Shown here one piece after another: positions 37,848 through 51,582 of a stretch of DNA of 64,000 nt. The number at the start of each line of letters is the position of its first letter. Positions within the stretch are counted from its first letter, which is position 1. Origin of the DNA: an uncultured Chloroflexia bacterium (lineage in GTDB: Bacteria; Chloroflexota; Anaerolineae; Anaerolineales; RBG-16-64-43); the NCBI GenBank assembly GCA_963724345.1, contig CAVRUI010000001.1:14201-78200 (forward strand), written 5' to 3'. The notes under the pieces were generated by a model that worked only from the letters and a program-made list of their open reading frames with translations, was not told where the DNA came from and ran no database searches. The position numbers were made by a program, and so were the translations under genes.

Positions 37848-40235
37848 CTACTTCAATCCGCCCGGTTTGTATTCGCAGCGCAGGAGGGTAACGTTCCAGA
37901 ACACCTCACTGCGGACGATCGCCCCTCCGGCTTTATCGAGCGCGACGAACTGGTACTGCAGCCAGGATTCGCCGAAGGTGCGCACGTCGGGGATGTTCTC
38001 CGCCCACAGGGTGATTTCATACAGGTTGTTCCCGACCGGGGTCATGGAGATTCCGCTGCTCCAGGCGCCGAGCCGTCCGCTGCTTTGTTCCTTCAGCCGG
38101 GCGTAGAACAGAACGTTCGCCACGCCCTCGGCGCTGGAAAGGCCGATCTGGAAGGTCACCTCGCGCGGGCCGCAGTCGCCGGCGGAGTTGGGCCCGTAGA
38201 AGTAGAGGGTCTCGGTGGAGACTTTGGGCTTTCCGAACGAGATAAGGGCGGGGGTCGGGGTGTCCGTGGGCGCGACATCGGGCATCATCGGCAGGAATTG
38301 GAAATCCCAGCCGAAGTTGATATCCGCGCGCACTTCGCCGCCGCCAAGCACGATCTCGGTCGTGGCGGGTCCGCCTCCGCGGATCGGATAGGTCCAGCCG
38401 CCGGGAATAAGCGCCAGGTCGTTGCCGTCGTGGAGCGCATCGACCGAGACGCAGTAGGTGCCCGCCGCGAGGGCGGGGAAGGAATACCCGCCATCCGGGC
38501 CGGTGACGGCCGTCATCAGGTCGCTCCCCGTGGCGCAGGAGCCTGCTTTCAGGCGGAGCGTGACGCCCGGGATGCCGGGTTCGCCGGGTTCCAGAATGCC
38601 GTTGGCATCGATGAAAAGCCCGTCGCCGTCGGGATCGCTGCATCCCGGAGGCGGCGTGGGCGGGTATCCGTGTTCCGGGACGGCGCACAGGTCGTGCCAG
38701 ACTTTCCCGCTGATCATGGCGTCGCCGCCGCCGGAGGCTGTGCGCTCCACCGCGCCGCGGTCGCAGCCTGCGCCCTGCGGACGGATTACGCCGTGTTGGT
38801 CAGTTCCGGCGCAGAGGTCGGGGTTGGCCGAGTCGATCGCCGGGCTTGCGGCTTGGAGATCGAATGCCGGCGACCAAGTTCCCACCGGAGGCGGGGGGGC
38901 CAGCATCGGATCGGTGCTGGAAAGATCGGTGCCCTCCGAGAGGGCGCAGGTCGCGCCGTCGTCGATGTTGTGGCCGATCGAATCAATCGGCACCCCGGCG
39001 CAGTTACCGCCCGAATTGCCGGCCAGGATCGTATTGCGGATGGTCTTTTCGCCGCCGCCGCTGTTGTGGATTCCCTGGTTATTATTCCCGGCGACCGTCA
39101 CGAACATCAGCCGGATGTTCCCGCCGTCGTTGAAGATGCCGCCGCCACCGGAGCCGCCCGTGTTGGCGCCGACGGTTGTGTTGTCGAGGAGCAAGCCGCC
39201 GCTGTCGGCATTGAAAGCGCCGCCGCCCTCATCTTCATAGGCCGTGTTGTACACGATCGAACTCTCGTAGAAGTGGGCCATCCCCAGGTTGTAAATCCCG
39301 CCCCCGGTCCGGCCCTCGTTGTTGCTCAGCATGACATCCCGTGCGATGAGGGTGACGTAACCGTTGAGGATCCCGCCTCCGGCGTTGATGCTGTGGTTGT
39401 TCTCGACGGTGGAGCTGGTGAGTTCGAGGTCGCCGTTGTTGTGAATGCCGCCCCCTTCGTTCCCCGCGCTGTTGCCCTCGACCTCGGTGTTGATGATGGT
39501 CGATTGGGTGCCGGGGCCGAGCCACATGCCTCCGCCCGGGCCAAAGGCTTCATTATCGGCGACGATCGTATGGGAGAGCATCAAGGTCGGCGCGACGCCC
39601 GCGACATCTTCGGTTGCGATGCCGCCGCCGACGAAGGCGTGGTTGCCGCGGATTTCCGACATATAGACGCCGAGTGCGCTGCCGCCGGCGGCGTAGATCG
39701 CGCCCCCGTCCACTTCGTGGTCGCCATACCAGGTGCTGATGTTGTTTTGGAAGATCGTTTCGTTGACGTTAAGTGTCGCGTTGATGACCCGGATTCCGGA
39801 TCCGTTGTATTCATGGCCGTTCTGGATCACCAAGCCGCTGAGGCTGGCACTGACGCCGGGCAGGACGTCGAAGATCCGGTCCGCGGCGTTGCCGTCGATG
39901 ACCGGTTTCCCGGTTCCCATAATCGTGACGTTGCCGGTGAGATCCAGGTCGCCGGTCGCGGCGGCATCTTCATCGGACCCCGCCCGCGTCAGGGTGTAGG
40001 TTCCGGCGGGGATTTGGATGGTCTGGGTGCCGGCGCAGATGTTGGCCCGGATCACCGCCTCGCGCAGGGAACAATCCGCGCCGGAGCACACGCCGTCGTT
40101 GGTGTCGGCGGTTTTGGTTACCAGGATATCCGCATCGCACGGCACCGGGGTTCCGCCGCAGCTGACCAGGAGGGCGAACAGGAAGATCGCGCATCCTGGA
40201 ACATACCGGGCGATGGAAGGCTTATTGGGTCTCAT
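37848..40235 (-). CDS. CSLREA-domain lipoprotein with beta-helix, choice-of-anchor Q and SdrD B-like domains
   Basis: LVSC lipobox; DCSLREAV; GGGI repeats; SPAIDS...DQHG..RP; ISGKVWHD...GEPGIPGV. Confidence 0.88.
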   Translation of the reverse strand: MRPNKPSIARYVPGCAIFLFALLVSCGGTPVPCDADILVTKTADTNDGVCSGADCSLREAVIRANICAGTQTIQIPAGTYTLTRAGSDEDAAATGDLDLTGNVTIMGTGKPVIDGNAADRIFDVLPGVSASLSGLVIQNGHEYNGSGIRVINATLNVNETIFQNNISTWYGDHEVDGGAIYAAGGSALGVYMSEIRGNHAFVGGGIATEDVAGVAPTLMLSHTIVADNEAFGPGGGMWLGPGTQSTIINTEVEGNSAGNEGGGIHNNGDLELTSSTVENNHSINAGGGILNGYVTLIARDVMLSNNEGRTGGGIYNLGMAHFYESSIVYNTAYEDEGGGAFNADSGGLLLDNTTVGANTGGSGGGGIFNDGGNIRLMFVTVAGNNNQGIHNSGGGEKTIRNTILAGNSGGNCAGVPIDSIGHNIDDGATCALSEGTDLSSTDPMLAPPPPVGTWSPAFDLQAASPAIDSANPDLCAGTDQHGVIRPQGAGCDRGAVERTASGGGDAMISGKVWHDLCAVPEHGYPPTPPPGCSDPDGDGLFIDANGILEPGEPGIPGVTLRLKAGSCATGSDLMTAVTGPDGGYSFPALAAGTYCVSVDALHDGNDLALIPGGWTYPIRGGGPATTEIVLGGGEVRADINFGWDFQFLPMMPDVAPTDTPTPALISFGKPKVSTETLYFYGPNSAGDCGPREVTFQIGLSSAEGVANVLFYARLKEQSSGRLGAWSSGISMTPVGNNLYEITLWAENIPDVRTFGESWLQYQFVALDKAGGAIVRSEVFWNVTLLRCEYKPGGLK

Positions 40236-40497
40236 GGTTTTTCTCCTTTATGCCGCGGATGGAATGAAAGAATGGTACTTAGAACGGTTGGACGATGCAA
40301 ACGGCGTTCACTTCACGCATTCTCTCCCGGACGGAAAATGGGACTCTCTGAAAAAAGGTGTCATGCTGAGCGCCTGCCCTCGCGAAGCGGGGGAAGCGAA
40401 GCATCTGTTTCAGCGTGTCCAGGCCCTTCGCTGCGCTCAGGGTGACATTTTCAGAGGTTTCAAAAGTATAATTTTCACAAGTTTCAGTGTACTCCGG

Positions 40498-41304
40498 ATG
40501 CCGGGGAAAAATTCCAAAAAACCTCCGGAATACCTATACGAGGGATATTTGCCGAATAAACTGGACGCGCTGGAGAAGCGGATCGTCTCCTGCCGCCGCT
40601 GCCCGCGGCTGGTGGAGTGGCGGGAGCGGATGGGCAGGGAGAAACGGCGCGCTTACCGCGGGGAAACCTATTGGGCGAAGCCGGTCCCCGGATTCGGCGA
40701 TCCACGGGCGCGGGTACTCGCGGTGGGGCTTGCGCCGGGCGCGCACGGTTCGAACCGGACGGGGCGGATGTTCACCGGCGACGCCTCCGGCGATTTTCTG
40801 TACCCCGCTCTTCACCGGGCCGGGTTCGCCGACCGGCCGGCGGCCATTGCGCGCGGCGACGGCCTCGCGTTGGAGGGCCTGTTCCTCTCGGCTGTGTGCC
40901 GCTGCGCCCCGCCGGACAACAAGCCGACGGCGGAGGAGATCGCGAATTGCCTGCCGTACCTGGCCGGGGAAATCCGGTTGCTTCCGGATTTGCGCGTGCT
41001 GGCTGCGCTGGGGAAGATCGCTTACGACGCGCTGGTCCGCTTGCTGAAGGCGGGTGAATTGGGGATCCAACCGGCGGTTCTGCCGGAGAGCATTCCACCG
41101 TTTGGGCACGGCGTGCATTGGCCGTTCGTCACCGCGGAGGGCGGGCGGATATGGATGGCGGCTTCGTATCATCCCAGCCGGCAGAATACCCAGACCGGCC
41201 GGCTGACGAGGGCGATGTTCGACCGCTTCTGGCGTTTGGTGACGGAATTGGCGTCTTCGTCCACGAAGGAACACGAAGGAAGATCCGAAGAACACGAAGA
41301 ATAA
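40498..41304 (+). CDS. Uracil-DNA glycosylase family 5 (UdgB-like, 4Fe-4S)
   Basis: CRRCPRL, GLAPGAHGSNRTGRMFTGD, YHPSRQNT; start uncertain. Confidence 0.9.
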   Translation: MPGKNSKKPPEYLYEGYLPNKLDALEKRIVSCRRCPRLVEWRERMGREKRRAYRGETYWAKPVPGFGDPRARVLAVGLAPGAHGSNRTGRMFTGDASGDFLYPALHRAGFADRPAAIARGDGLALEGLFLSAVCRCAPPDNKPTAEEIANCLPYLAGEIRLLPDLRVLAALGKIAYDALVRLLKAGELGIQPAVLPESIPPFGHGVHWPFVTAEGGRIWMAASYHPSRQNTQTGRLTRAMFDRFWRLVTELASSSTKEHEGRSEEHEE

Positions 41305-41364
41305 AATTATTTTTGGGAGGGATTATTCGACCGCTTGTGGTGTTTATTTCAACTTTGAATATTC

Positions 41365-41437
41365 GTAGAGTGGGTTGACGCACCGCCGATCACTTTATAA
41401 ATGCTCGATTTATCAATGGCGCGTCAACCCACCCTAC
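41365..41437. repeat. GTAG-type REP doublet (inverted)
   Basis: gtagagtgggttgacgc ... gcgtcaacccaccctac. Confidence 0.75.
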
Positions 41438-41456
41438 AAGGCAGGCGCGCAGGCAA

Positions 41457-41578
41457 GTCATCCCGGCGCGATCGGTTGGTTCGTCATCCCGGCGTGATCG
41501 GTTGGTTCGTCATCCCGGCGTGATCGGTTGGTTCGTCATCCCGGCGTGATCGGTTGGTTCGTCATCCCGGCGTGATCG
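41457..41578. repeat. 26-bp tandem repeat, about 4.7 copies
   Basis: gtcatcccggcgtgatcggttggttc at 41457, 41483, 41509, 41535 and 41561; no spacers. Confidence 0.92.
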
Positions 41579-41786
41579 CAGCCGGGATCCACGACATGCA
41601 CTCTATAAAAATATTATTCTGCTGGATGCCCCTTCGTTCACCCCCGCTCCGCAATCATCCCTGCTCATGGAAAAAGTTCGAGCAGGGATGCTCCCCCCTT
41701 CGCGAACCCATCGCACCGGGAAATCACCGGCGCTAATCGCTCCGGGGGGCAAGCGCGGGGCAGGCGCCGGGCATGACGATCCCATC

Positions 41787-44558
41787 TCATTCCATTATCG
41801 ATAAAAACACCGGCACGATCTGCGGGTCGAAATGCTTCCCGGATTGGGTCAGCAGGTAATCGCGCGCCTGGTCCTTGGTCCACGCCTGGCGGTACGGGCG
41901 GTCGGATGTGGTTGCGTCCCAAACGTCCACGATCGCGAAGACCCGCGCCGCGAGCGGAATTTGGTCGCCCTTCAAGCCGCGCGGATAGCCCGAGCCGTCC
42001 CACTTTTCATGGTGGCAATAGGGGATGTCGAGGGAATGCTTCAGGTAGATGATCGGCGAAAGCATCTCGTAGGCATAGAGCGGGTGGCGGCGCATGACGT
42101 CCCATTCCTCGCGCGAAAGGGCGTCGCGTTTGAGGAGGATGCTGTCGGGGATCCCCATTTTTCCCATGTCGTGCAGCAGCGCGCCGCGGCGGATGTGGAC
42201 CATCTGGCTTTCATCCATCCCCATCGCGCGCGCCAGGCTTTCGGTCATCTCGGTGACGCGCTCGGTATGCCCTTCCGTGCCCTCGTCCCGCAGGTCGAGC
42301 GCGCGCGACCAGCCTTCGATGGTGGTGTCGTAGGCCAGGTTCAGCTCGGCGTTGGAGTGCTGCAGCTCGTCGAACAGGGAAGCGTTGTCGATCGCGATCG
42401 CGGCCTGGACGGTGAGGGATTCCAGGAAATCGAACCAGTCGGCATCCGCCGTGAGCGCGGTCCGGAAGAACACCTCGAGCACTCCCTTCACCTGGCCCTT
42501 GACGATCAGGGGAGCCGCGCAATAGGACTTGAAGCGTTCGGACGGGAACTTCGGCGAGCGCGAAAGGCTGCCCACATCCTGGTCCAGGTTTGGGACGAAG
42601 ATCAGCCGGCGCTCGTGGGCCGCCTGGCCGGCGTATCCCTCCCCCAGCCGGAGGTGGGTGTGGTGCAGGGCATCCGAGTGGAACCCCTTCCCGGCCACGA
42701 ATTCCAACAACGTGGTCTTCGGGTTGAGAAGCAGGACGTCCACCGCATCCACGTTCGAACGGCGCGAGACCTGGTCCAGGAGGATTTCCAGCGTGAAGTG
42801 CAAATCCAGGCTGGAGCTGATGGTGATGTCGATATCCCGCAGGGTTTGCAGACGCTCCAAGCGGCTTTGCGTTTCCGCGTACAGGCGCAGGTTCTCCAGC
42901 ATCGGCGCGAGCTGGCTGCCGAGCGTGCGCAGGAGAAGAACGTCGTCGTGGGGGTAGAAATCGTCCGGATCGCGCCGTCCGAACAGCCACACCCCGCTGG
43001 TCTTCCCGCCGGTCTGGAGCGCGACGGCCAGCCGGACCCAGGACCAAAGGTCGGCGGCGACGCGGTCGGGCGGCCGGTACTGGCCGGCGCTCTGAATCAG
43101 CGTTTCCATTTCGCCGAGTTCCACCAGCCGGTCGGTCAGGGTGAGCCCATCCACGTAAAACAGAGAGTATCCGTTTTCCATCTTCCGATACAAAGCCAAC
43201 TCGCGGATCAAGAGGCTCGGGGTCACGTCGCGGCTCAGGAGCCGGATGAGCAGCGCGGGTTCGAAGGCCGCCGGCAGCTGGAGCGCGAAATCGCGGACGA
43301 TCTCCTGCGGATTGTGGCGGGCCCCGTAGGCCATCGTATCGAACCAGAGCTGGAAACGCCCGCGCAGGCCCGGGGCGGCGATCAGGAAGATCAGCGTCAC
43401 GGCCAGGCTGAACGCCAGCGATTCATCCGCCAGGTGGAGGTATTGGCTGGCGACGGAAAAGATAAGGATGATTGCCAGGCTGTAGAGCAGAATGAATGTA
43501 TACAAGCTCAACGCGCGGTTGGCGCGCAATTCGAACTCCCCCAGGCTGCGTTTGTAGATCGCGTAAAAGTAGAAAAACGGAAGCAGCGGAAGGGCCATGT
43601 AGGTGGCCAGCAGCGCCGGTGTGGACAGCGAAATTAATTTTGTGAAGAGGGGGACGGTTACATAGAACAGACTCGGCAGGAACGCCAATCCGATTCCGAG
43701 GAACATCAAACGCAGGGCAAGCCGTTCCGTCGCGGAAAGACGGGTAAGAAGGCGGTAGGCCAACAGCCCCAGGCTGCCAAGGATGGCGATCGCCAAGCCC
43801 AAATAAAATACCTGACGGGGCAGGACATGGAACAGCTCCAGCAGGGAAAGAACAACACCGGCAAAATAGAGAATCAACAGATACATCCGCTGCCGGGGCC
43901 GAAAGATCGGATTGGGGATCTCCAAATGCAGGTGGATGTACAGAGGAGCAATAAGCCAGGTCGCCACATGGATAATATAAGAGGAGAAATTGAGAATCGA
44001 TATGGATAAGCCGACGGCCAGGTATACCGCGGTGGCGTAGTTAAAAACAACCAGAAGAAACCAGCGCCGGTTCCGGGGACGGATGAGGATCAGCACGGCC
44101 GTCCCGGCCAGCCAAAATGGGATATAGAACAGCATTGGAATAAAGCTTTTTAACCGGTCGGAAAGGGCCGGGCTGACAAGCGTCCACTGGATTATCTGCG
44201 GGTTTCCGTTGCGGAGGATGGAGACCTCTATCGTGTCGCCGGGTTGAAGCCCGGAAAAGGGGACGCGGTCGTTATTATTAAGATAATCCTCATAGCGGAT
44301 ATCCCCAATGGCTGTTATTTGATCTCCCGCGTTGAGTTTATCCACATCCGCCGCGCACCACTCCGGCTGGTTGCTGCTGTTGCTCAAGCAATTTGCAAGA
44401 CCAAGAATTGTCCAATTGCTGTCGTATTCGATTCCGGAATAGGGCGCGATGTACGTTCCCGCGATCCCGTAAAAAAGACAGATCAGCAGGGTTACGAAGG
44501 AAATCAGGAACAAAGGCCAATCGGCGGCCTGCCGAAGGCCGGTCTTGATTTTTTCCAT
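41787..44558 (-). CDS. ComP-like membrane sensor (TM-PDZ-multi-TM-GAF-GAF) fused to an HD-GYP phosphodiesterase
   Basis: PDZ-like LNAGDQITAIG...LQPGDTIEVSILRNG; about 9 TMs; GAF motifs; HTERV, LLHDMGK, HHEKWDGSGYP, DVWDA..SDRPYR. Confidence 0.85.
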   Translation of the reverse strand: MEKIKTGLRQAADWPLFLISFVTLLICLFYGIAGTYIAPYSGIEYDSNWTILGLANCLSNSSNQPEWCAADVDKLNAGDQITAIGDIRYEDYLNNNDRVPFSGLQPGDTIEVSILRNGNPQIIQWTLVSPALSDRLKSFIPMLFYIPFWLAGTAVLILIRPRNRRWFLLVVFNYATAVYLAVGLSISILNFSSYIIHVATWLIAPLYIHLHLEIPNPIFRPRQRMYLLILYFAGVVLSLLELFHVLPRQVFYLGLAIAILGSLGLLAYRLLTRLSATERLALRLMFLGIGLAFLPSLFYVTVPLFTKLISLSTPALLATYMALPLLPFFYFYAIYKRSLGEFELRANRALSLYTFILLYSLAIILIFSVASQYLHLADESLAFSLAVTLIFLIAAPGLRGRFQLWFDTMAYGARHNPQEIVRDFALQLPAAFEPALLIRLLSRDVTPSLLIRELALYRKMENGYSLFYVDGLTLTDRLVELGEMETLIQSAGQYRPPDRVAADLWSWVRLAVALQTGGKTSGVWLFGRRDPDDFYPHDDVLLLRTLGSQLAPMLENLRLYAETQSRLERLQTLRDIDITISSSLDLHFTLEILLDQVSRRSNVDAVDVLLLNPKTTLLEFVAGKGFHSDALHHTHLRLGEGYAGQAAHERRLIFVPNLDQDVGSLSRSPKFPSERFKSYCAAPLIVKGQVKGVLEVFFRTALTADADWFDFLESLTVQAAIAIDNASLFDELQHSNAELNLAYDTTIEGWSRALDLRDEGTEGHTERVTEMTESLARAMGMDESQMVHIRRGALLHDMGKMGIPDSILLKRDALSREEWDVMRRHPLYAYEMLSPIIYLKHSLDIPYCHHEKWDGSGYPRGLKGDQIPLAARVFAIVDVWDATTSDRPYRQAWTKDQARDYLLTQSGKHFDPQIVPVFLSIME

Positions 44559-44559
44559 C

Positions 44560-45510
44560 TCAGTGTATATCGATCTCGGGCGGCACCGCGATCCCTAGTT
44601 TTTTCAAGAGGTGAATCAGCGGTACGATGTATTGGTCGATCACGGAGCGCAGTGAATCCGGATCAGCCAGCGGTGTTTCCTTAAGAATTTTCTTGGCCGC
44701 CAGGTAACTTTGGCTGAGATGGTACATGGCATAACTGACGGCTCCGGATTTGATCAGGATCTGCTGCGCGGACCGCAAGGCCTCCGGGTCGTCGACCTGG
44801 GAACGCAGTACTTTGAACCGCTCGCGGTCCGGGTGATCGGCCGTCAGGGCGTACAGGAACAGCAGGTTGTTTCGGCCCTGTTTCCAATCCGGATTGGCCG
44901 GGGTTTCCATGCCATCCTGAATGTCGTCGTGGATCTGAATTGCGTCGCCGGTAATGGACCCCAATTGGCGGAGCCGTTCGACGGTTTTTGGATTAGCCTT
45001 GCCGAGGATCGCCCCGATTTGCATCGCCGTTCCGAAGTACGACGAACTTTTGGCGTGAGTCACCTTCCAGTAATTCTCCTCGCCGGTCAGGTTGCGCGAA
45101 TCCAGATCCTGGCCGTATGCCATGGTGAGCGCCATCTGCGCCAGGCAATCCATCACCGCCGCCCGGCGCCCGGCATCCACGGGGGTGTTGGCGATGACGC
45201 GGAAGGCGATCGATTGAAACGCGAAGGAGAAATTGGCGGCCATAGCGTCGCCGATCTTGAGGTGCTCCCCGCGCGGATCCTGGTCGAGCATATCGTCCAC
45301 GAGGAGGATACTGAGAATCATGCATAAAATTGCGGCCGAACCGCCTGCCACCACCGATTCGTCGCCACCCACCGCCCGGCAGGCGCGCAACGGCCATTCC
45401 CAAACCTGGTGCGGGCGGGCCACCTGCCGTTCGAAAATGGCTAATATCGCCGGCCAATCGGCCACTTCCGGCAGGCTCATAACCTGTCTTTTTACATCTT
45501 CAATATCCAT
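44560..45510 (-). CDS. Class I isoprenoid-synthase-fold protein, ComQ-like putative Trp-peptide prenyltransferase
   Basis: LLVDDMLD, GQDLD, KSS, QIHDDIQD, DWKQGRNNL; lacks the GGKRxRP and DDxxD..RRG IPP-binding motifs; GAGGGAGG RBS. Confidence 0.72.
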   Translation of the reverse strand: MDIEDVKRQVMSLPEVADWPAILAIFERQVARPHQVWEWPLRACRAVGGDESVVAGGSAAILCMILSILLVDDMLDQDPRGEHLKIGDAMAANFSFAFQSIAFRVIANTPVDAGRRAAVMDCLAQMALTMAYGQDLDSRNLTGEENYWKVTHAKSSSYFGTAMQIGAILGKANPKTVERLRQLGSITGDAIQIHDDIQDGMETPANPDWKQGRNNLLFLYALTADHPDRERFKVLRSQVDDPEALRSAQQILIKSGAVSYAMYHLSQSYLAAKKILKETPLADPDSLRSVIDQYIVPLIHLLKKLGIAVPPEIDIH

Positions 45511-45588
45511 GGAATTCCCTCCCTCATAATTATGTGGAAATCCGGTAATTTAGCAACAGGTTGTTCTTTCTCCGGTTTGGAAAAACAT

Positions 45589-45616
45589 CGTAGCGCGGCG
45601 AGCCGTCCGCGCTACG
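45589..45616 (-). terminator. GTAG-type hairpin with U-tract between the peptide gene and the ComQ-like gene
   Basis: cgtagcgcgg-N8-ccgcgctacg followed on the minus strand by atgttttt. Confidence 0.55.
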
Positions 45617-45723
45617 AGAAATCCTACCCTGATACCCGGGAAATCAGGGCAAATAGTGCCACCCATTCCCTGCGATCGACCGGTTTTCCTCCGGATGCTT
45701 GAATGTGATCTGCGAGGCCGGCC

Positions 45724-45867
45724 TTAACCCCATTTACCCCAGCCTGACAGGCTGGTGGCTTTCAACAGATCCTCGGGCTCCTCGATCGCCGTGAGGTCGG
45801 ACAAAGCTGCTATCAATTCACTTTTCTCTTCGGAATGCAAAAGCACGTTGAACTTTTCTATGGACAT
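45724..45867 (-). CDS. 47-aa ComX-like precursor peptide (not in the supplied ORF track)
   Basis: GAGGAGGG RBS 5 nt before ATG; MSIEKFNVLLHSEEKSELIAALSDLTAIEEPEDLLKATSLSGWGKWG*; Trp at -2 and -5. Confidence 0.75.
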   Translation of the reverse strand: MSIEKFNVLLHSEEKSELIAALSDLTAIEEPEDLLKATSLSGWGKWG

Positions 45868-45970
45868 GCGAACCCTCCTCTATGGGCTATGGACGCTTTC
45901 CTCTTTGGGTCTTGCGGTGGACCGCGGGCTGGATGAGCATGGGACCCGGCTCGATCACCATGCCACATTA

Positions 45971-46013
45971 ATTATATGTAAATTGGAGAGAGAAAACCAT
46001 CGACTTTCGATGG
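45971..46013 (-). promoter_or_regulatory. Putative promoter of the peptide gene: TATAAT -10 plus an upstream palindrome
   Basis: TATAAT at 45976-45971; weak -35; CCATCGA-N3-TCGATGG at 45997-46013. Confidence 0.5.
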
Positions 46014-46124
46014 AAGGTAGTCATTTTCAGACCGGCTCGTGCGGGTAATCAGGACGATCGGCCGCTCCGAATTCGAATCGGGCTGTTTCTCAGGATTACA
46101 GGTGAGGATTGGCGGAAGCGGGGA

Positions 46125-46878
46125 TCAGATCTGCCCGGAATAAACGGACGCCAATATGTCGCGCGACCGTTCCAGCGGGCGGTTATCGAGCGGAGTTACC
46201 CGGTAACCGAGCGATTCCAGAAACGCAAGGCATTCCATATGGACCTTGCCGGAGTGGGTGGAGAGGAAAATCGGCGGATGGCTCGCGGCCAGCATCCGGC
46301 GCGCGCCCTGCAGCGCCAGGAATTCCGCCCCTTCGATGTCGATTTTGAGCAGATCCGGCGCCGGCAGGCGCCCCGCATCGATCCAATCGTCGAGCGCGAT
46401 GGATTTCACCTCCAGCGAGCCGCTTTCGCCGATCCGCCCCTTGGATGTGCTGGAATCCTCTTCGAAGCGGACCGTACCGCTGCGGTCGGCGACCGCCGCG
46501 TCGACCACGGTCACGTTCCCGATCCGGTTGAGGGCGAGGTGCCGCCGGAGAAACCCCAGGTTGCGGGGCAGCGGCTCGAACACGAACACGCGGCCGCCGC
46601 GGCCCGGCCCGGACGGCGGAGATCAGGCTGTAGTAGCCGACGTTCCCGCCCAGGTCGAACACCACGCCGCCGGAAGGGACAGCTTCCGCGAACCGGACGC
46701 ATTTTTCCATTTCGTAGCTGCCCAGCCAGTATCCGTGGTTCCCGGATCCCGCGATCCATTTCTTCCCGCGCAGGGGGCCCTGCAGGATGGGCAGTACCGC
46801 CCGCCCGGGAATCAACCGCAGCGGGAGGCGCAGAATTTTTCCGAAAAACGAAGTGTTGGAAATTGAGGTCCAGTTCAT
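46125..46878 (-). CDS. FkbM family methyltransferase (one +1 frameshift near 46595)
   Basis: FDLGGNVGYYS in the upstream frame; FEP..N and LLKIDIEGAE in the downstream frame. Confidence 0.85.
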
Positions 46879-46979
46879 GTCCACTCAGATTGACGAAAAA
46901 TCTTTGGACAGGATTTGACAGGATTTTCAGGATAAAAAATGAAAAAATCATGTCGATCCTGCAAGATCCAGCCTATTCT

Positions 46980-47606
46980 CTACCAGCGCATCAGGGCATT
47001 GATACCCAGCCGCCGGCTTTTCTGCACATACAGTCCGACGTACGCCAGGTCGAAGAACAGGATTGCCCAGGCGAAGAACACCGTGAGCTGTGATTCCGGC
47101 AGATACACAAACACCAGAATCGAGGGGCACAACGTGCCCAGCATCTTCGCCAGCCCGATGTAGAGGGACTGACCGGCCAGATCCCTGCGGTCCAAAAGCA
47201 TGCGGATGAACAGGATCGACATCAGGAGATTTTGCCCGAAGGCGGTGTAGTAGCCCGCATAATTATCGAACTCGCGCGTGACCAGCAACACGGTCAGGAA
47301 CGCGACGATGAGTATGGAGAGAAAAGCGCCGAAGAAAAATACGGCGGTCACTTCGGACGGGCGGCGCGCGCTTTCGTAGCGCAGGTATTGGATGACGATG
47401 ACCGAATCCAGGGCGAACCAGGCGATGTTGATGATCAGCTGAATCCCGCCGGCCGGATGGATGAAGGAAAAGATGAATTCCCAGGAGATGTTGAGCGTCA
47501 GGGCCGCCATCGGCATGCCGCAGGCTTTATCCTGGTATCCGCGTTTGATGAGGAGCAGGTAGGTGATCAGCCAGAAGACGCCGGATGCGATCCCAAGCCA
47601 CTGCAT
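46980..47606 (-). CDS. Transmembrane terpene cyclase, Pyr4/PaxB/XiaH/DmtA-like
   Basis: ~7 TMs; W..TY....RG..D..CGMP..AL.LNISWEF; W..LD; SL.IG.AK.LGT; late FFDL Asp; GGAGG RBS. Confidence 0.78.
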   Translation of the reverse strand: MQWLGIASGVFWLITYLLLIKRGYQDKACGMPMAALTLNISWEFIFSFIHPAGGIQLIINIAWFALDSVIVIQYLRYESARRPSEVTAVFFFGAFLSILIVAFLTVLLVTREFDNYAGYYTAFGQNLLMSILFIRMLLDRRDLAGQSLYIGLAKMLGTLCPSILVFVYLPESQLTVFFAWAILFFDLAYVGLYVQKSRRLGINALMRW

Positions 47607-47621
47607 GACGACCCTCCTTCG

Positions 47622-48390
47622 TTACGCCGCATCGCGCCGGGGCGGCACGAGAAATTCCAGCAGGAGCGATACTATATCACGGCCCCCGGGCGGCAAAGGA
47701 TCGCGCGGGTATACCCGGCGGAAAGATTCGAGGCGCTGGATGACATCCCGCAGGGGCACCGGGCGCCCGGCATCGGCCGAAGCCCGGCGGACGAACAACG
47801 CTCCCTGTGACCGGTGGCACGCCATTGCGGCCAGTTTGCATTCGAACGCGGGAGTGATATCCACCACGAAATCCGCCGGATCGTTGAGGTTGGCTGAGCG
47901 CTTGCGCGGATGATCGGCATGATCCGCGCCGAATGAATAGAGCGCGGGAACGCCGGAGAGGCGCGCGGTTTCGAGGCAGGCCTGATGCGCCAGCAAGTGG
48001 CCGGGATGCCCGTATTCGCCGCTCGAGCCGTGGGTGATCACCGCGTCGCGGTTTCGCGGCGGCGAAGAAGGCTTCCATTTGCGGGACGACTTCCCCGGCC
48101 GATCCGGCGAAGGCGTACAGCGCGTCCTCGGGGCCCACGTCCGGATCCCGGAACCCGAGAAAATCGACCGTCGCGCATCCGAGCGCGCGCCCGGCGCACC
48201 GCAGTTCGTCGGACCGTATGGCTCCAAGCCCGGCGCGCGTGGCAAACCTCAGATCGCCCGCCTCGCCGCCCTCGCCGCGCGTGCAGCACAGGATCCCGAC
48301 CTCCGCCCCGCGCCGGGCAAGCAGCGCGAGTGTTCCGCCGGCAAAAACCGATTCATCGTCCGGATGTGCGGTGACGCAGAGGATTTTCAA
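47622..48390 (-). CDS. PIG-L/LmbE family deacetylase (one +1 frameshift near 48050)
   Basis: AHPDDE, TRGEGGE, GEYGHPGH, CHRSQ. Confidence 0.85.
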
Positions 48391-48505
48391 GATAAGCTTC
48401 CTTCGGATGCCCGAAAAAGGAAACGGGCCGGGAGAGGGAGTTATTAAGGATATAGCCGCGATCGGCGATCGCGGCTATAGTATTTTTCATGCCGGTTGCT
48501 TCGAC

Positions 48506-48967
48506 CTAACTCGTCTTGCCTTCGATGGTGTGGATCGCCTGTTCGGGCGTGACGTTGGCGTACAGCACCGACATCAAGCCGGGCAGGTATTTGTTCATCG
48601 TCATCACGTTGGAATACACCACCTGGCGGATCAGGACGTGGTTCAGCTCGCCGCCTTCCACATCGATGCTGGTTTTGCAGCGGATGTCGCCGTCGTTGAT
48701 GTCCATCTCGAAATTGCCGATCACCAGCCCGTAATTCGCCCGGGTGATGAACTCCATCGCCGCCGGACGCCGTTCCTCGGGGGCGGGGTTGGGGAACACG
48801 GAGTAGAAGATGAACTGCTGCTGGTTTTCCCGCGCCTGCGCAAAACAGGTCCATTTGCCGTTTTTACCGGAAAAACCGGTGCGGAGGATGGGCTTACTCT
48901 CCATTTCGGTGAATGGCCAATCGTCTTCGCGGAAAAATTTTCTGATCGATTCGAGTATTTTCCCCAT
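48506..48967 (-). CDS. YbjN-domain (type III chaperone-like) protein
   Basis: EFITRANYGLVIGNFEMDINDGDIR. Confidence 0.85.
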   Translation of the reverse strand: MGKILESIRKFFREDDWPFTEMESKPILRTGFSGKNGKWTCFAQARENQQQFIFYSVFPNPAPEERRPAAMEFITRANYGLVIGNFEMDINDGDIRCKTSIDVEGGELNHVLIRQVVYSNVMTMNKYLPGLMSVLYANVTPEQAIHTIEGKTS

Positions 48968-49135
48968 CGGGAATCCTCGCCGCAGAGGGGGCCCCGTTCC
49001 GGCGCGAAGCCGAACGGGCGGAAACCGCCATCCGGGATGAATTTTATACGGAATGGGGCGGCTTAGCAACCGTTCCACGGGGGGCGTTTCATTCCCCAAA
49101 AAGCCGGGCGATGGGGCGGGCTGTATAATCGCCGC

Positions 49136-49774
49136 ATGCCCGAAGTGAAGAGCCGGATCCGCATGAAGAACTGCCGCCTGCCGGCCTGTGCCCGGGCCGC
49201 CTCCTTTTCAGTCCTCATCCTGCCCTTACTCCTAACCGCGTGCCGGGCCGTCGGACCCTCTCCGGCGCCGGCCGGCACACCAACCGGGTTACAGGGGACC
49301 GGCGCGGGTTTTGCCGTGTTTTCCCCCGGACCTTCCTCTGAAAAGACGGTCGAACCGGCACCGATCTTGGCTGCGACGGCGCCCGTCCCGGATGAATCCG
49401 CGGAAGCAATCCCGACGGAGAGCCAGCCGGCCTTCGGATCCTGTATCGACAACCTGGTCTTCATGGGGGACCTGACGTATCCCGACCGCGCGTCGGTTTC
49501 ACCCGGCCAAATTCTGGAGAAGAAGTGGAAGGTCCGCAACGGCGGGCTTTGCGATTGGGGGCCGGAATACCGGTTCCGCTGGGTGGGCGGGGCGGAGCTC
49601 TCGACGCGCCGCGAATTCGCGCTTTTCCCCGCCGCCGCCGGGAGCGAAGCCGTCGTCTCCATCACGCTGACCGCGCCGCTCGCGAAGGGGGAATACATCT
49701 CCAGCTTCCGGGCATTTTCGCCGCTGGGCGTGGCGTTCGGGGATACGCTCTACATCGATGTGGTAGTCACCTGA
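49136..49774 (+). CDS. NBR1-Ig-like domain lipoprotein
   Basis: LTAC lipobox; DLTYPD...PGQ..KKWKVRNGG.C.W; FG..LYIDVVV. Confidence 0.82.
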   Translation: MPEVKSRIRMKNCRLPACARAASFSVLILPLLLTACRAVGPSPAPAGTPTGLQGTGAGFAVFSPGPSSEKTVEPAPILAATAPVPDESAEAIPTESQPAFGSCIDNLVFMGDLTYPDRASVSPGQILEKKWKVRNGGLCDWGPEYRFRWVGGAELSTRREFALFPAAAGSEAVVSITLTAPLAKGEYISSFRAFSPLGVAFGDTLYIDVVVT

Positions 49775-49857: not shown

Positions 49858-49920
49858 GAAAAGGTTTTAGCTTTGATGTAAAATTATGCTCAAATGGATT
49901 TCGTAAATACGAGGAGGCCT

Positions 49921-51347
49921 ATGCTGCGTGTTCGGGGATCGGAAATCGTCGATGCGGAAGGGCGGAGCATCCGGCTGCGGGGGGTGTGCGTCGGAGGCTG
50001 GATGAACATGGAAAATTTCATCAACGGGTACCCCGGGGATGAAAGCGGGACCCGCCGCGCCATGGGGGAAATTCTTGGTCCGGCGCGGGCGGAATTCCTC
50101 TTCGACCGCTGGCTGGATTATTTCTTCAACGAGGACGACGCCGCATACCTGAAGGAGTGCGGCGCAAACGTCGTCCGCCTGCCGCTCAATTACCGGCACT
50201 TCGAGGCCGATGGAGATCCGTACCGCTATTTGGAAAAGGGATTCGAACGCCTGTCGAAGGTCATCGGGGCCTGCGCGCGGGCCGGGCTGTATGTGATCCT
50301 GGATTTGCACGCCGTGCAGGGGTGGCAGAACACCGACTGGCACTCCGATAATGCCAGCCGGCATTCGCTGATCTGGGGCCATCCGCATTTTCAGGATCGG
50401 TTTATCGCATTGTGGAAGGAGATCGCGCGGCGATACCGGGGCGTCGACGCCGTGGCCGGGTACAACCTGATGAACGAGCCGTTCACGGGGGTGCTCCGCC
50501 GGGCGGTTCCGGGCTTACCATCCCTCCGATTGGGCGGCCATAAACAAGCTGTACCGGCGCGCGGCGGGCGCCGTCCGCGAGGTCGATGCCGACCACATCA
50601 TCTTCCTGGAAGGGGATTACTACTCGACAAGATTTTCCAAGCTCGACCCTCCCTTCGCGCCCAACCTGGTGTACAGCAGCCACAACTACACGCCGGCGGG
50701 TCTGTTCTCGGGCAGGTACCCGGGGAAATTCGACGGGAAGACCTGGAATAAAAAGCGCCAGGCGGACGTTTTCAACGCGGGCGAAGGCACGGTTTTTACG
50801 CAACAGTACCAAGTTCCGCTGTGGGTCGGCGAGTTCGGATCGTTGTACACCGGACCGGCGGCGGACGCGGCCTACCGTCTGCGCGCGCTTGACGAACAGA
50901 TCGCCGTTTTCGAGGAGCACGCGGCGCACTGGACGATCTGGACCTACAAGGACGTCGGCGTGATGGGGATCGTGACGGTCGATCCGAAGAGCGAGTATAT
51001 GCGTTTGATCCGGCCGATCCTGCGCGCCAAGCATCTCTTGGGGACGGATTCCTGGCTGGATAGGCCGGCGGGGAAAACTCCCGTTCACAAGGCGGTCGAG
51101 CGGCTGGCGGGAATCGCCGAACGGACGATCGGCGACCCGGAGATCGACCATCCATCCAATCGCAGGTACATGGCGCAAGCGCTGCAGGCGGGCTATTTCG
51201 CGAGCCTGATGCAGCCGGCCTTCGCCAAGCGCTTCAAGGGTCTCTCGGAGATCGCAGATCGACGGGGTCATGCAGTCGTTCGCCTTGCGCAACTGCAAGG
51301 TGCAGAAGGGGCTGGCCGAGGTGATGAAGAAGTATTGGCGGGGGTAA
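49921..51347 (+). CDS. Glycoside hydrolase family 5 (two +1 frameshifts, near 50490 and 51255)
   Basis: GGWMNME, NVVRLP, ILDLHA, YNLMNEP (acid/base), LWVGEFG (nucleophile), WTYK. Confidence 0.85.
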
Positions 51348-51385
51348 TAATGCAGGGGCGACCCAGTGGGCCGCCTGTGGATGAC

Positions 51386-51414
51386 GTAGGGGCGACCCAA
51401 TGGGTCGCCCCTAC
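51386..51414. repeat. GTAG-type REP palindrome
   Basis: Identical to 10596-10624; a degenerate copy lies immediately upstream. Confidence 0.85.
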
Positions 51415-51582
51415 AAACGCGGTCCCCGCCAGGGGTTCACACCCGCTTCGCGAGTGCAGGCGCGGGGATGACGGAGCGTTTACCAATGGGGGTGGCCGAT
51501 AAGCCGGCACCCAGTCGGGACCTTGTGGAACCGTAATTCCTGGACCCCGGCCAAGAACACGCCGGGGTGACGGAGGGAAACA

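Follow-up and report, generated by a model that had tools for sequence, protein, structure and literature searches.

A Pyr4-type membrane terpene cyclase gene beside a ComQ-like peptide-prenylation module in two genera of Anaerolineales

Several described systems come close to the locus treated here. In the drimentine pathway of Streptomyces (DmtA1/DmtC1), according to the published account (PMC6173783), the Pyr4-type membrane cyclase DmtA1 cyclises C3-farnesyl pyrroloindoline diketopiperazines by means of E60, D214, D94 and Y33. The proposed likeness lies in a cyclase with seven transmembrane helices (7-TM) that acts after indole-C3 farnesylation of Trp with formation of a pyrroloindoline, and in a reaction started by olefin protonation with no epoxidase and with conserved Glu, Asp and Tyr residues. 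The drimentine substrate is a tRNA-derived diketopiperazine and its transferase is phytoene-synthase-like, whereas the present locus encodes a ribosomal peptide and a ComQ-like transferase. According to a review (PMC13290415, citing Hubrich 2024), the prenyl group on Trp of ribosomal peptides is cyclised by ComQ-like P domains that carry a fused cyclase domain. Here too, ComQ-like prenylation of Trp in a ribosomal peptide would be followed by cyclisation, but the fused cyclase is soluble and MstE-like, while the putative role in the present locus falls to a separate integral-membrane Pyr4-type protein with, apparently, its own transcription unit.

A small Trp-containing precursor, a ComQ-family transferase and a membrane receptor are also found in ComQXPA of Bacillus and StheQ/StheX of Sphaerobacter, as is allele polymorphism in peptide and transferase, and for a ComQ homologue from Chloroflexota a preprint describes farnesylation of Trp in the peptide encoded next to it (bioRxiv 10.64898/2026.08.29.745113). 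The receptor of these systems is a histidine kinase, whereas a predicted HD-GYP phosphodiesterase is encoded here, and they have no known cyclase or methyltransferase, the StheQ preprint mentioning neither. Pyr4, XiaH, TylF and the zigralone cyclase share Pfam family, size and topology with the cyclase of the present locus. In PMC13307353, however, they come from clusters for polyketide or indole meroterpenoids, where UbiA-type prenyltransferases occur together with epoxidases or P450s, and the present locus has none of these genes.

The locus is part of a window (the whole stretch of DNA that was analysed, 64,000 nucleotides) from an uncultured bacterium of the order Anaerolineales. Its features are, by coordinate:

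40018..41304, plus strand: uracil-DNA glycosylase (UDG, family-4 type), which marks the right-hand flank of the cassette
41787..44558, minus strand: multi-pass membrane protein of 923 aa (GAF and HD-GYP domains), presumed to be the module's receptor
44560..45510, minus strand: ComQ-like prenyltransferase of trans-IDS fold (PF00348, 71.7 bits; motifs DDMLDQD and HDDIQD)
45724..45867, minus strand: ComX-like precursor peptide of 47 aa with the C-terminus ...SGWGKWG (W-x-x-W core)
45971..45976, minus strand: TATAAT box roughly 100 nt 5' of the peptide gene, embedded in a ACATATAAT block that is invariant
45997..46013, minus strand: weak terminator-like hairpin after the FkbM gene, a 7-bp stem followed by a T run
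46125..46878, minus strand: FkbM-family methyltransferase (PF05050/TIGR01444) with an N-terminal extension of about 70 aa, frame broken
46980..47606, minus strand: Pyr4-type transmembrane terpene cyclase (TMTC), 208 aa, intact, with the RBS GGAGGG
47622..48390, minus strand: PIG-L/LmbE-family deacetylase (PF02585, AHPDDE motif), frame broken
48506..49099, minus strand: YbjN-family protein (PF10722), the upstream neighbour of PIG-L

The main reading, to which a probability of roughly 0.45 is given, is that the cyclase, perhaps together with FkbM, tailors the prenyl-Trp peptide. The chemistry favours such a coupling by analogy, with the DmtA1/drimentine system and ChrPC as precedents.

The sequence-only reading had taken the gene at 46980-47606 for a membrane cyclase from a GMP..AL..N.SWE motif and a late Asp. 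The profile search bears this out, with a match to Pfam PF25129 (Pyr4-TMTC) of E 8.9e-28 and 98 bits (cut-off 27) covering profile positions 20-223 of 227, and the motif residues are in place (G30-M-P32..A35-L36..N39-I-S-W-E43 and D186). It is the single PF25129 protein of the genome. The AF2 model (pLDDT 86.9) has seven long helices (residues 2-26, 33-49, 55-76, 88-112, 119-139, 148-168 and 173-199), and size and topology are those of the compact Pyr4-like type, which has about 200-250 aa and seven transmembrane helices. Invariant positions across 71 cyclase sequences include W12, Y16, P32, N39-F44, F46, W63, D67 (helix 3, 71/71) and Y120, among others, and D186 is conserved in 99% of them. 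The spacing of Y16 and E43 is the same as that of Y33 and E60 in DmtA1; from spacing and profile coordinates, Y16, E43 and D186 are inferred to be putative counterparts of Y33, E60 and D214, while D67 is a candidate extra acidic residue for direct olefin protonation, comparable with D94 of DmtA1 and D96 of MacJ. Judged by its sequence, the protein is a genuine member of the Pyr4 family that retains the catalytic residues, with cyclase activity predicted.

The 7-TM protein could instead carry or export the lipidated peptide, which is regarded as very improbable. Foldseek comparison of the AF2 model with the PDB gave SWEET, KDEL-receptor and cystinosin proteins (PQ-loop-type, 7-TM) as best matches, one source labels a homologue as 'PQ-loop repeat-containing protein', and inspection of open reading frames and profiles revealed no recognisable exporter in the cassette. 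The fold matches are weak, however (TM 0.5-0.64, E around 1e-2), the score is far over the Pyr4-TMTC cut-off, and the acidic pair and Tyr that mutagenesis of DmtA1 ties to catalysis (PMC6173783) are kept. A sequence search of solved structures with the cyclase gave no relative, the sole match having an E of 0.27.

The assignment of the neighbouring ComQ-like and ComX-like genes to the peptide-prenylation type is supported, and such a pair farnesylates Trp in another Chloroflexota species according to the preprint. In 18 of the 20 ComQ-like loci examined, a peptide whose leader is conserved and whose C-terminus carries W-x-x-W is encoded upstream of the ComQ-like gene, and these loci span lineages with and without the cyclase. 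The ComQ chain-length positions before the first Asp-rich motif did not differ between the two kinds of lineage. The ComQ-like gene is the sole prenyl-transferring gene near the cyclase. The locus lacks an oxygenase, which counts against the coupling, since a bare olefin would then be what the cyclase must protonate. An Rfam search of positions 41000-49500 returned nothing except a chance lncRNA match (E 0.79).

In the genus of the window (g1) and in a sister genus that has the cassette (g4), five genes (cyclase, FkbM, peptide, ComQ and sensor) lie between PIG-L and UDG, with UDG after the sensor. The order YbjN, PIG-L, cyclase, FkbM, peptide, ComQ, sensor is found on every cyclase-bearing contig of g1 kin (6 of 7 kin genomes), and g4 has it too. 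It is complete from YbjN to the sensor in G013, continues to the peptide in G016 and G010, where the contigs end, and is cut within the cyclase gene by the contig end in G018; the cassette order also appears in 12 of 79 metagenome loci. YbjN upstream of PIG-L is conserved in g1 and g4 only. In two other sister genera (g2 and g3), PIG-L and UDG lie side by side in convergent orientation in three of four loci, the fourth having a toxin-antitoxin pair between them. Conservation of UDG, as its open reading frame is listed, is confined to residues of about 180-414.

The sequence-only reading had grouped PIG-L with the cyclase and FkbM next to the module; that PIG-L belongs to the module is not supported. 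The gene is conserved across the order and its orthologues in the sister genera (45-55% identity) directly adjoin UDG, so PIG-L is judged from gene order to be an ancestral bystander outside the module. It scores 71 bits against PF02585 (cut-off 28.2). As a BshB or MshB enzyme it was rejected, the intact kin allele reaching 84 bits where BshB2 requires 195 and 83 bits where MshB requires 224; being below these equivalog cut-offs, it is assigned as a PIG-L family member only. FkbM has another distribution. Among 40 relatives its orthologues (at least 69% identity) are restricted to g1 (7/7) and g4 (3/4), and a gene 47% identical with the same N-terminal extension occurs in G034, where neither ComQ nor cyclase was found, a case that counts against the coupling.

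The FkbM and PIG-L genes claimed beside the cyclase are both present, although each frame is interrupted by one extra base in the window. FkbM is divided into two overlapping reading frames (46183-46884 and 46125-46589) by one extra G near 46597, which a DNA alignment with 10 kin shows in the window only. The window copy gives 51 bits with PF05050 and, on the C-terminal frame, 74.4 bits with TIGR01444, and an intact kin allele reaches 98.6 bits against a cut-off of 37.7 with the FkbM profile. PIG-L is split likewise (47677-48390 and 47622-48245) by one extra base near 48048, absent from three kin aligned as DNA, and was a single intact frame in all kin tblastn matches except for a split copy in G013. 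The frameshifts could be real, making FkbM and PIG-L pseudogenes and any tailoring pathway a decaying one in this organism. The lack of the extra bases in the aligned kin (10 for FkbM, 3 for PIG-L) may be counted in favour of this, but it is considered improbable given the conservation of PIG-L across the order and the state of the assembly. A nearby GH5 gene has two further isolated +1 insertions (50495 and 51250) and the genome is in 3 contigs, yet 77.7% complete by marker genes, a pattern that fits an indel-rich long-read assembly. Because the kin examined carry intact genes, both frameshifts are most likely assembly errors. The sequencing-run search found no run holding exactly this sequence and listed no RNA run; three DNA runs contain 5-8% of the sampled words.

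The cyclase lies on the same strand as the peptide gene and two genes upstream of it, as had been claimed, with FkbM in between. It starts 15 nt past the PIG-L stop in the window and 15-50 nt past it among kin. The hairpin and separate promoter that the sequence-only reading placed at about 46.0 kb were recovered at 46013-45997 and 45976-45971. The hairpin is partly conserved in kin, the TATAAT box, unchanged in each of the 7 kin spacers aligned, is probably the promoter of the peptide gene itself, some kin have a palindrome 3' of the cyclase, and in g4 an opposite-strand gene for a PQQ-type dehydrogenase separates FkbM from the peptide gene. From these features the cyclase and the peptide gene look to be in separate transcription units. 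AATCCTG repeats in the spacer between cyclase and FkbM (19 in the window, 7.7 expected) were considered as an operator, a reading rejected because the kin spacer is unconserved (mean identity 32%).

The alternative of most weight, held to be only slightly less probable than the main reading, is that the cyclase is an unrelated neighbour. It (and FkbM) would then have a role apart from ComQ, for example on some other membrane isoprenoid or unknown substrate, as must be so for the many orphan homologues of other phyla, and would have landed by chance in the variable spot downstream of PIG-L that also received the peptide module. That the cyclase is coupled to PIG-L rather than to the peptide gene agrees with this, and so does the behaviour of the PIG-L/UDG junction, which also took an unrelated insertion in G012 and may thus be a hot spot. 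The congener G003 has PIG-L, FkbM, peptide, ComQ and sensor in order with a clean 77-bp spacer in place of the cyclase; by this comparison it is a genome that lost the cyclase and retained everything else, a loss that also suits an unrelated gene. In G007 the ComX/ComQ allele has been swapped (56-60% identity, compared with 83-94% among most other g1 kin), while the cyclase and FkbM are ordinary and show no co-variation with the swap. Against an independent arrival, cyclase, FkbM and peptide module are present or absent as a single block between PIG-L and UDG; the identity between g1 and g4 is also similar across the cassette genes (cyclase 67-72%, FkbM 69-76%, ComQ 64-72%). The cyclases of the clade furthermore have substitutions of their own where the remaining 70 homologues are conserved: D115 (97%) is replaced by N and G78 (86%) by E.

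The check proposed in the sequence-only reading, whether Pyr4-type cyclases and ComQ-like genes occur together in other genomes, gave no second independent linkage, either in 137 loci of cyclase homologues elsewhere or in 33 other ComQ-like loci. The 137 loci comprise 70 from genomes and 67 from metagenomes, many of the latter on short contigs; ComQ, FkbM or PIG-L was near the cyclase homologue in none of either set, and no cassette gene was beside it. Among the 33, a cyclase was beside the ComQ-like gene in 0 of 10 loci from other genera of the order and in 0 of 23 ComQ-positive genomes in a sample of 401 genomes of the class, one of the sampled genomes (G344) having both genes on separate contigs. 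No ComQ-like gene was found in 15 distant cyclase-bearing genomes (best E 5.6e-11). Thus the cyclase-ComQ linkage, by sequence comparison, is a single evolutionary event restricted to the g1/g4 clade, in which the two genes are linked but unfused.

The closest homologues outside the clade, 43-58% identical and with its invariant residues retained, come from Bacillota, Bacteroidota, Cyanobacteriota, other Chloroflexota and archaea. In a quick tree of 90 cyclase homologues the clade groups with unnamed metagenome proteins and apart from the other Anaerolineales copies; its deep nodes are open, so no claim is made on the cyclase donor. An unrelated neighbour is further suggested by these closest outside homologues, which have neither conserved neighbours nor ComQ, and by G022, where a cyclase copy follows murA by 4 nt and the ComQ module is on another contig. 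In the survey of Kakumu & Helfrich (PMC13307353), moreover, just 264 of the 1107 Pyr4-like proteins of bacteria have terpenoid genes in their vicinity. The g1/g4 clade could already be among these 264, because its ComQ-like gene scores as a polyprenyl synthase. On the other side, a prenyltransferase (UbiA) was a neighbour at only 2 of 36 diverse cyclase-homologue loci, which makes a prenyltransferase beside the cyclase uncommon by chance. The cyclase itself is rare (12 of 401 genomes of the class), and a single cyclase within about 1.1 kb of a single peptide-prenyltransferase module would a priori be a rare coincidence.

In the main reading, the cyclase and FkbM joined an accessory cassette of about 6 kb in the common ancestor of the two Anaerolineales genera, the cassette (cyclase, FkbM, ComX-like, ComQ-like and HD-GYP sensor) lying between the housekeeping genes PIG-L and UDG. 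The ComQ-like enzyme would prenylate indole C3 of a Trp in the W-x-x-W core to give a pyrroloindoline, and the lipid tail would cause partitioning into the membrane. There the cyclase, proton-initiated and class-II-like, would protonate the terminal olefin with E43 as the acid, helped by D67 and D186, and cyclise the chain in the manner of DmtA1, after which FkbM would possibly add an O-methyl group. Cyclisation or methylation of the peptide is something that we infer. The cyclase would be an optional tailoring step which alters signal identity and is not required by the module.

A known lipid-tailed, carboxyl-methylated peptide pheromone is the a-factor of yeast, a eukaryote, which is S-farnesylated on Cys and methylated by ICMT; for a product of prenylation and FkbM it serves as an analogy only. 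An a-factor-like pheromone of Anaerolineales, with a ComQ-prenylated Trp, a tail cyclised by the Pyr4-type enzyme, O-methylation by FkbM, readout by the HD-GYP protein and signal dialects based on cyclase and alleles, is as a whole unlikely. The dialects, if true, would arise from having or lacking the cyclase, which one congener lacks, and from swapped ComX/ComQ alleles. No report of a Pyr4-type cyclase acting on a ribosomal peptide was found in the literature searched, and such a pheromone would be the first case of this as well as the first terpene-cyclised quorum signal.

Should there be no such coupling, the locus still offers a clean example of a variable spot between housekeeping genes that gathers accessory genes, and the orphan cyclase subfamily (40-58% identity across phyla and archaea) stays a functional question. 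If it is real, ComQ-type peptide prenylation and Pyr4-type membrane cyclisation, both well studied but so far separate toolkits, would be joined, and ribosomal peptide-terpenoid hybrids would have a second route that is unrelated to the first. One branch of the large orphan family of bacterial Pyr4-like proteins would then have a function, and cyclisation of the lipid tail may be a means by which peptide signals are diversified in uncultured Chloroflexota.

The cyclase gene is third in a run of seven minus-strand genes, listed here in order of transcription with window coordinates:

49099-48506, minus strand, YbjN-family gene
48390-47622, minus strand, PIG-L deacetylase
47606-46980, minus strand, 208-aa membrane protein (PF25129), the cyclase
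46878-46125, minus strand, FkbM methyltransferase
45867-45724, minus strand, 47-aa peptide with the C-terminus SGWGKWG
45510-44560, minus strand, ComQ-like protein of polyprenyl-synthase fold
44558-41787, minus strand, 923-aa membrane protein with GAF and HD-GYP domains, the sensor

A plus-strand uracil-DNA glycosylase (UDG) gene is convergent with the sensor gene. The 208-aa protein, encoded by the sole cyclase gene of the 3.1-Mb genome, matches PF25129 (Pyr4-like transmembrane terpene cyclases) with an E value of 8.9e-28 and 98 bits (cut-off 27), and all the cyclase motifs named in the sequence-only reading were confirmed in it. When the window protein is compared with 70 homologues of other lineages, W12, Y16, P32, N39-I-S-W-E43-F, W63, D67, Y120 and G145-Q-S are invariant in the 71 sequences and D186 is conserved in 99%. 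Mutagenesis of the drimentine cyclase DmtA1 by Yao et al. found E60 to be essential, with contributions from D214, D94 and the conserved Y33, and tied D94 to reactions in which a bare olefin, not an epoxide, is protonated (PMC6173783). The spacing of Y16, E43 and D186 matches that of the DmtA1 catalytic residues, and D67 is a candidate extra acid. Seven long helices are seen in an AlphaFold2 model made from 11 sequences (pLDDT 86.9); its nearest folds, all weak matches, are the SWEET, KDEL-receptor and cystinosin 7-TM proteins, and no solved structure related by sequence was found. A distant family member with 37% identity (locus L205 7684-8331, genome G344) reads N-L-V-W-D where the others read N-I-S-W-E, the catalytic Glu being replaced by Asp.

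Among 40 relatives the cyclase is present in 6/7 genomes of the window's genus (g1), 4/4 of the sister genus g4 and 1/2 of g6, and was not found in the remaining 27. The order YbjN-PIG-L-cyclase-FkbM-peptide-ComQ-sensor is conserved within g1 and g4 and recurs in 12 of 79 metagenome loci. Homologues outside this clade (40-58% identity) come from Bacillota (many of them Lysinibacillus), Hymenobacteraceae, Nostoc, other Chloroflexota, Binatia, Nitrososphaeraceae and others. No ComQ-like, FkbM or PIG-L gene was found near them in 70 genome loci or in 67 metagenome loci, many of the latter being short contigs, and among 136 neighbours from 36 diverse loci, scanned against Pfam, no partner recurred. 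A UbiA prenyltransferase lies directly 5' on the same strand at only two of these 36 loci (L087 6993-7865 and L105 237-1100), one from a Methanoperedens archaeon and one from a Verrucomicrobia MAG, possibly as small meroterpenoid pairs in unusual taxa. ComQ-like genes were found in none of 15 distant cyclase-bearing genomes, where the best matches are generic polyprenyl synthases with E values of at least 5.6e-11. These orphan neighbourhoods agree with what the survey of Kakumu and Helfrich gives for bacterial Pyr4-like proteins, only 264 of 1107 of which have terpenoid genes nearby (PMC13307353).

ComQ-like genes with an upstream peptide (conserved leader, C-terminal W-x-x-W) are commoner than the cyclase: in the relatives set 20 of 41 genomes have them, as do 24 of 401 in an even sample of the class, where the cyclase is found in 12, one of them flagged unpublished. 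Outside g1/g4 the cyclase was found beside ComQ at none of 10 ComQ loci of the order and in none of 23 ComQ-positive genomes of the class sample; G022 and G344 carry both genes, in each case on different contigs. A single evolutionary event therefore underlies the linkage, and co-occurrence across genomes, proposed earlier as a check, gives no independent support. The peptide W-x-x-W core is the same in lineages with and without the cyclase. The 46%-identical homologue of G022 (L020 6535-7182) starts 4 nt past the stop of a murA-like gene (EPSP_synthase fold), in a housekeeping and cell-envelope context away from the contig with the ComQ module.

The ComX-like precursors of at least eight genera of the order (window 45724-45867, loci L013-L035) share the leader M.IE.F..LLHSE... 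and have cores such as GWGKWG, GWGYWA, QWFGWW, GWAAWH, GWFDWA and others, whose two Trp residues may be two prenylation sites. Directly 3' of the window's peptide gene is a strong terminator-like hairpin (45588-45617, minus strand; 11-bp stem with 8 GC pairs, T run), followed by a promoter-like site 5' of ComQ (45529-45556, minus strand), an arrangement from which far more peptide than enzyme transcript would result. The presumed receptor, a single 923-aa fusion in the window, is split in the sister genera g3 and g2 (L025, L026, L027, L030, L033) into a membrane-plus-GAF protein and, after it, a GAF-HD-GYP protein, and these loci have another GAF-HD-GYP paralogue 5' of the peptide.

The FkbM and PIG-L genes of the window are each read as two overlapping ORFs. 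DNA alignments place one extra base near 48048 in PIG-L (three kin) and one near 46597 in FkbM, the latter unique to the window among 11 FkbM sequences. A GH5-type glycoside hydrolase gene (49894-51502, plus strand) is likewise in two ORFs, and against two kin it shows isolated +1 insertions near 50495 and 51250. The extra bases are very probably long-read assembly indel errors and not decay; no sequencing run with the exact window sequence was found. Because the GH5 defect is of the same kind as the other two, the whole assembly seems indel-rich; it is in 3 contigs, yet marker-gene completeness is only 77.7%.

PIG-L orthologues (45-55% identity) are found throughout the order, with a match at E <= 1e-20 in 37/41 genomes, paralogues counted. 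In g2 and g3 PIG-L is convergent with and directly abuts UDG, with gaps of about 36-230 bp in three of four loci. The fourth (L118 7816-9632, genome G012) has two ORFs of 289 and 187 aa exactly between PIG-L and UDG, read as a putative AbiEi/AbiEii-type toxin-antitoxin pair, which makes the junction a spot collecting accessory genes. The g1 and g4 loci have five genes, from cyclase to sensor, between PIG-L and UDG. From this difference it follows that these five behave as one presence/absence block and that PIG-L is an ancestral bystander; it is judged not to belong to the module, and its taking part in tailoring is most improbable. FkbM orthologues (at least 69% identity) are confined to g1 (7/7) and g4 (3/4), and cyclase, FkbM and ComQ have similar identities between g1 and g4, so the block has been co-inherited since the g1/g4 ancestor. 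Co-inheritance is the best evidence in this analysis that the block may be a functional unit. Two things weaken it: the same junction took up an unrelated insertion in G012, and neither a donor nor another copy of the five-gene block was found anywhere.

The cyclase may instead be an unrelated neighbour of the peptide module, a reading rated only slightly less probable than tailoring of the peptide, and besides the single origin of the linkage several features agree with this. In the congener G003 a 77-bp spacer separates PIG-L from FkbM, and peptide, ComQ and sensor follow. This junction, internal to a 32.8-kb contig, holds no trace of the cyclase, and the gene is taken as lost. The transcription units also look separate. 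The cyclase starts 15-50 nt past PIG-L and is probably transcribed with it, a perfect palindrome lies 3' of the cyclase in several kin, and 3' of FkbM come a weak hairpin and then a TATAAT box, the box invariant in 7/7 kin; they fit the hairpin and separate promoter noticed earlier. A gene for a secreted PQQ-type sugar dehydrogenase lies between FkbM and the peptide in g4, on the opposite strand. G007 (L016) and an identical metagenome contig (L131) have a different peptide and a ComQ 56-60% identical to other g1 ComQs, as against 83-94% among most other g1 kin and 64-72% between g1 and g4, while their cyclase (73-88%) and FkbM (71-85%) are ordinary. ComX/ComQ alleles are thus exchanged while cyclase and FkbM are left untouched, a pherotype-like replacement within one genus, and the cyclase does not co-vary with them. 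Bacillus comQXP alleles are exchanged in much the same way. In G034 an FkbM of 47% identity that shares the N-terminal extension lies amid housekeeping genes, and neither ComQ nor cyclase was found in that genome.

Against mere adjacency, the sole terpene cyclase lies 1.1 kb from the sole peptide prenyltransferase module, which is unlikely as pure chance, and stays so even allowing for gene pile-up at a hot spot, the cyclase being present in only 3% of class genomes. The g1/g4 cyclases have also changed at two positions conserved in the orphan homologues (D115 to N and G78 to E).

Intergenic spacers in these genomes repeatedly contain near-perfect palindromes of the form (T/G)TAGCCG(C/G)GATCG.CGATC(G/C)CGGCTA(C/T) (window 48451-48479; 3' of the cyclase gene in L018, L022, L021 and L014), which may belong to a REP-like family or act as bidirectional terminators.

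A ComQ homologue of another Chloroflexota species C3-farnesylates the penultimate Trp of its neighbouring peptide; the words 'cyclase' and 'methyltransferase' do not occur in the text of that preprint (bioRxiv 10.64898/2026.08.29.745113). The DmtA1 substrate is exactly such a C3-farnesyl pyrroloindoline, but on a diketopiperazine (PMC6173783). Ribosomal peptides with a cyclised prenyl group on Trp are already known, the makers described being prenyltransferase-cyclase fusions with an MstE-like cyclase (review PMC13290415). No report of a Pyr4-type membrane cyclase acting on a ribosomal peptide was found in the literature, the 264 proteins of the PMC13307353 supplement lying outside this scope. 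The cyclase would be an optional tailoring enzyme that recognises only the lipid tail of the prenyl-Trp peptide. The features listed as signs of INDEPENDENCE inside the block each lower the odds of tailoring somewhat, but none contradicts such a role. The probability that the cyclase tailors the peptide is put at about 0.45, and it is unlikely that FkbM joins it. The coupling of cyclase and peptide is testable with four genes in a heterologous host.
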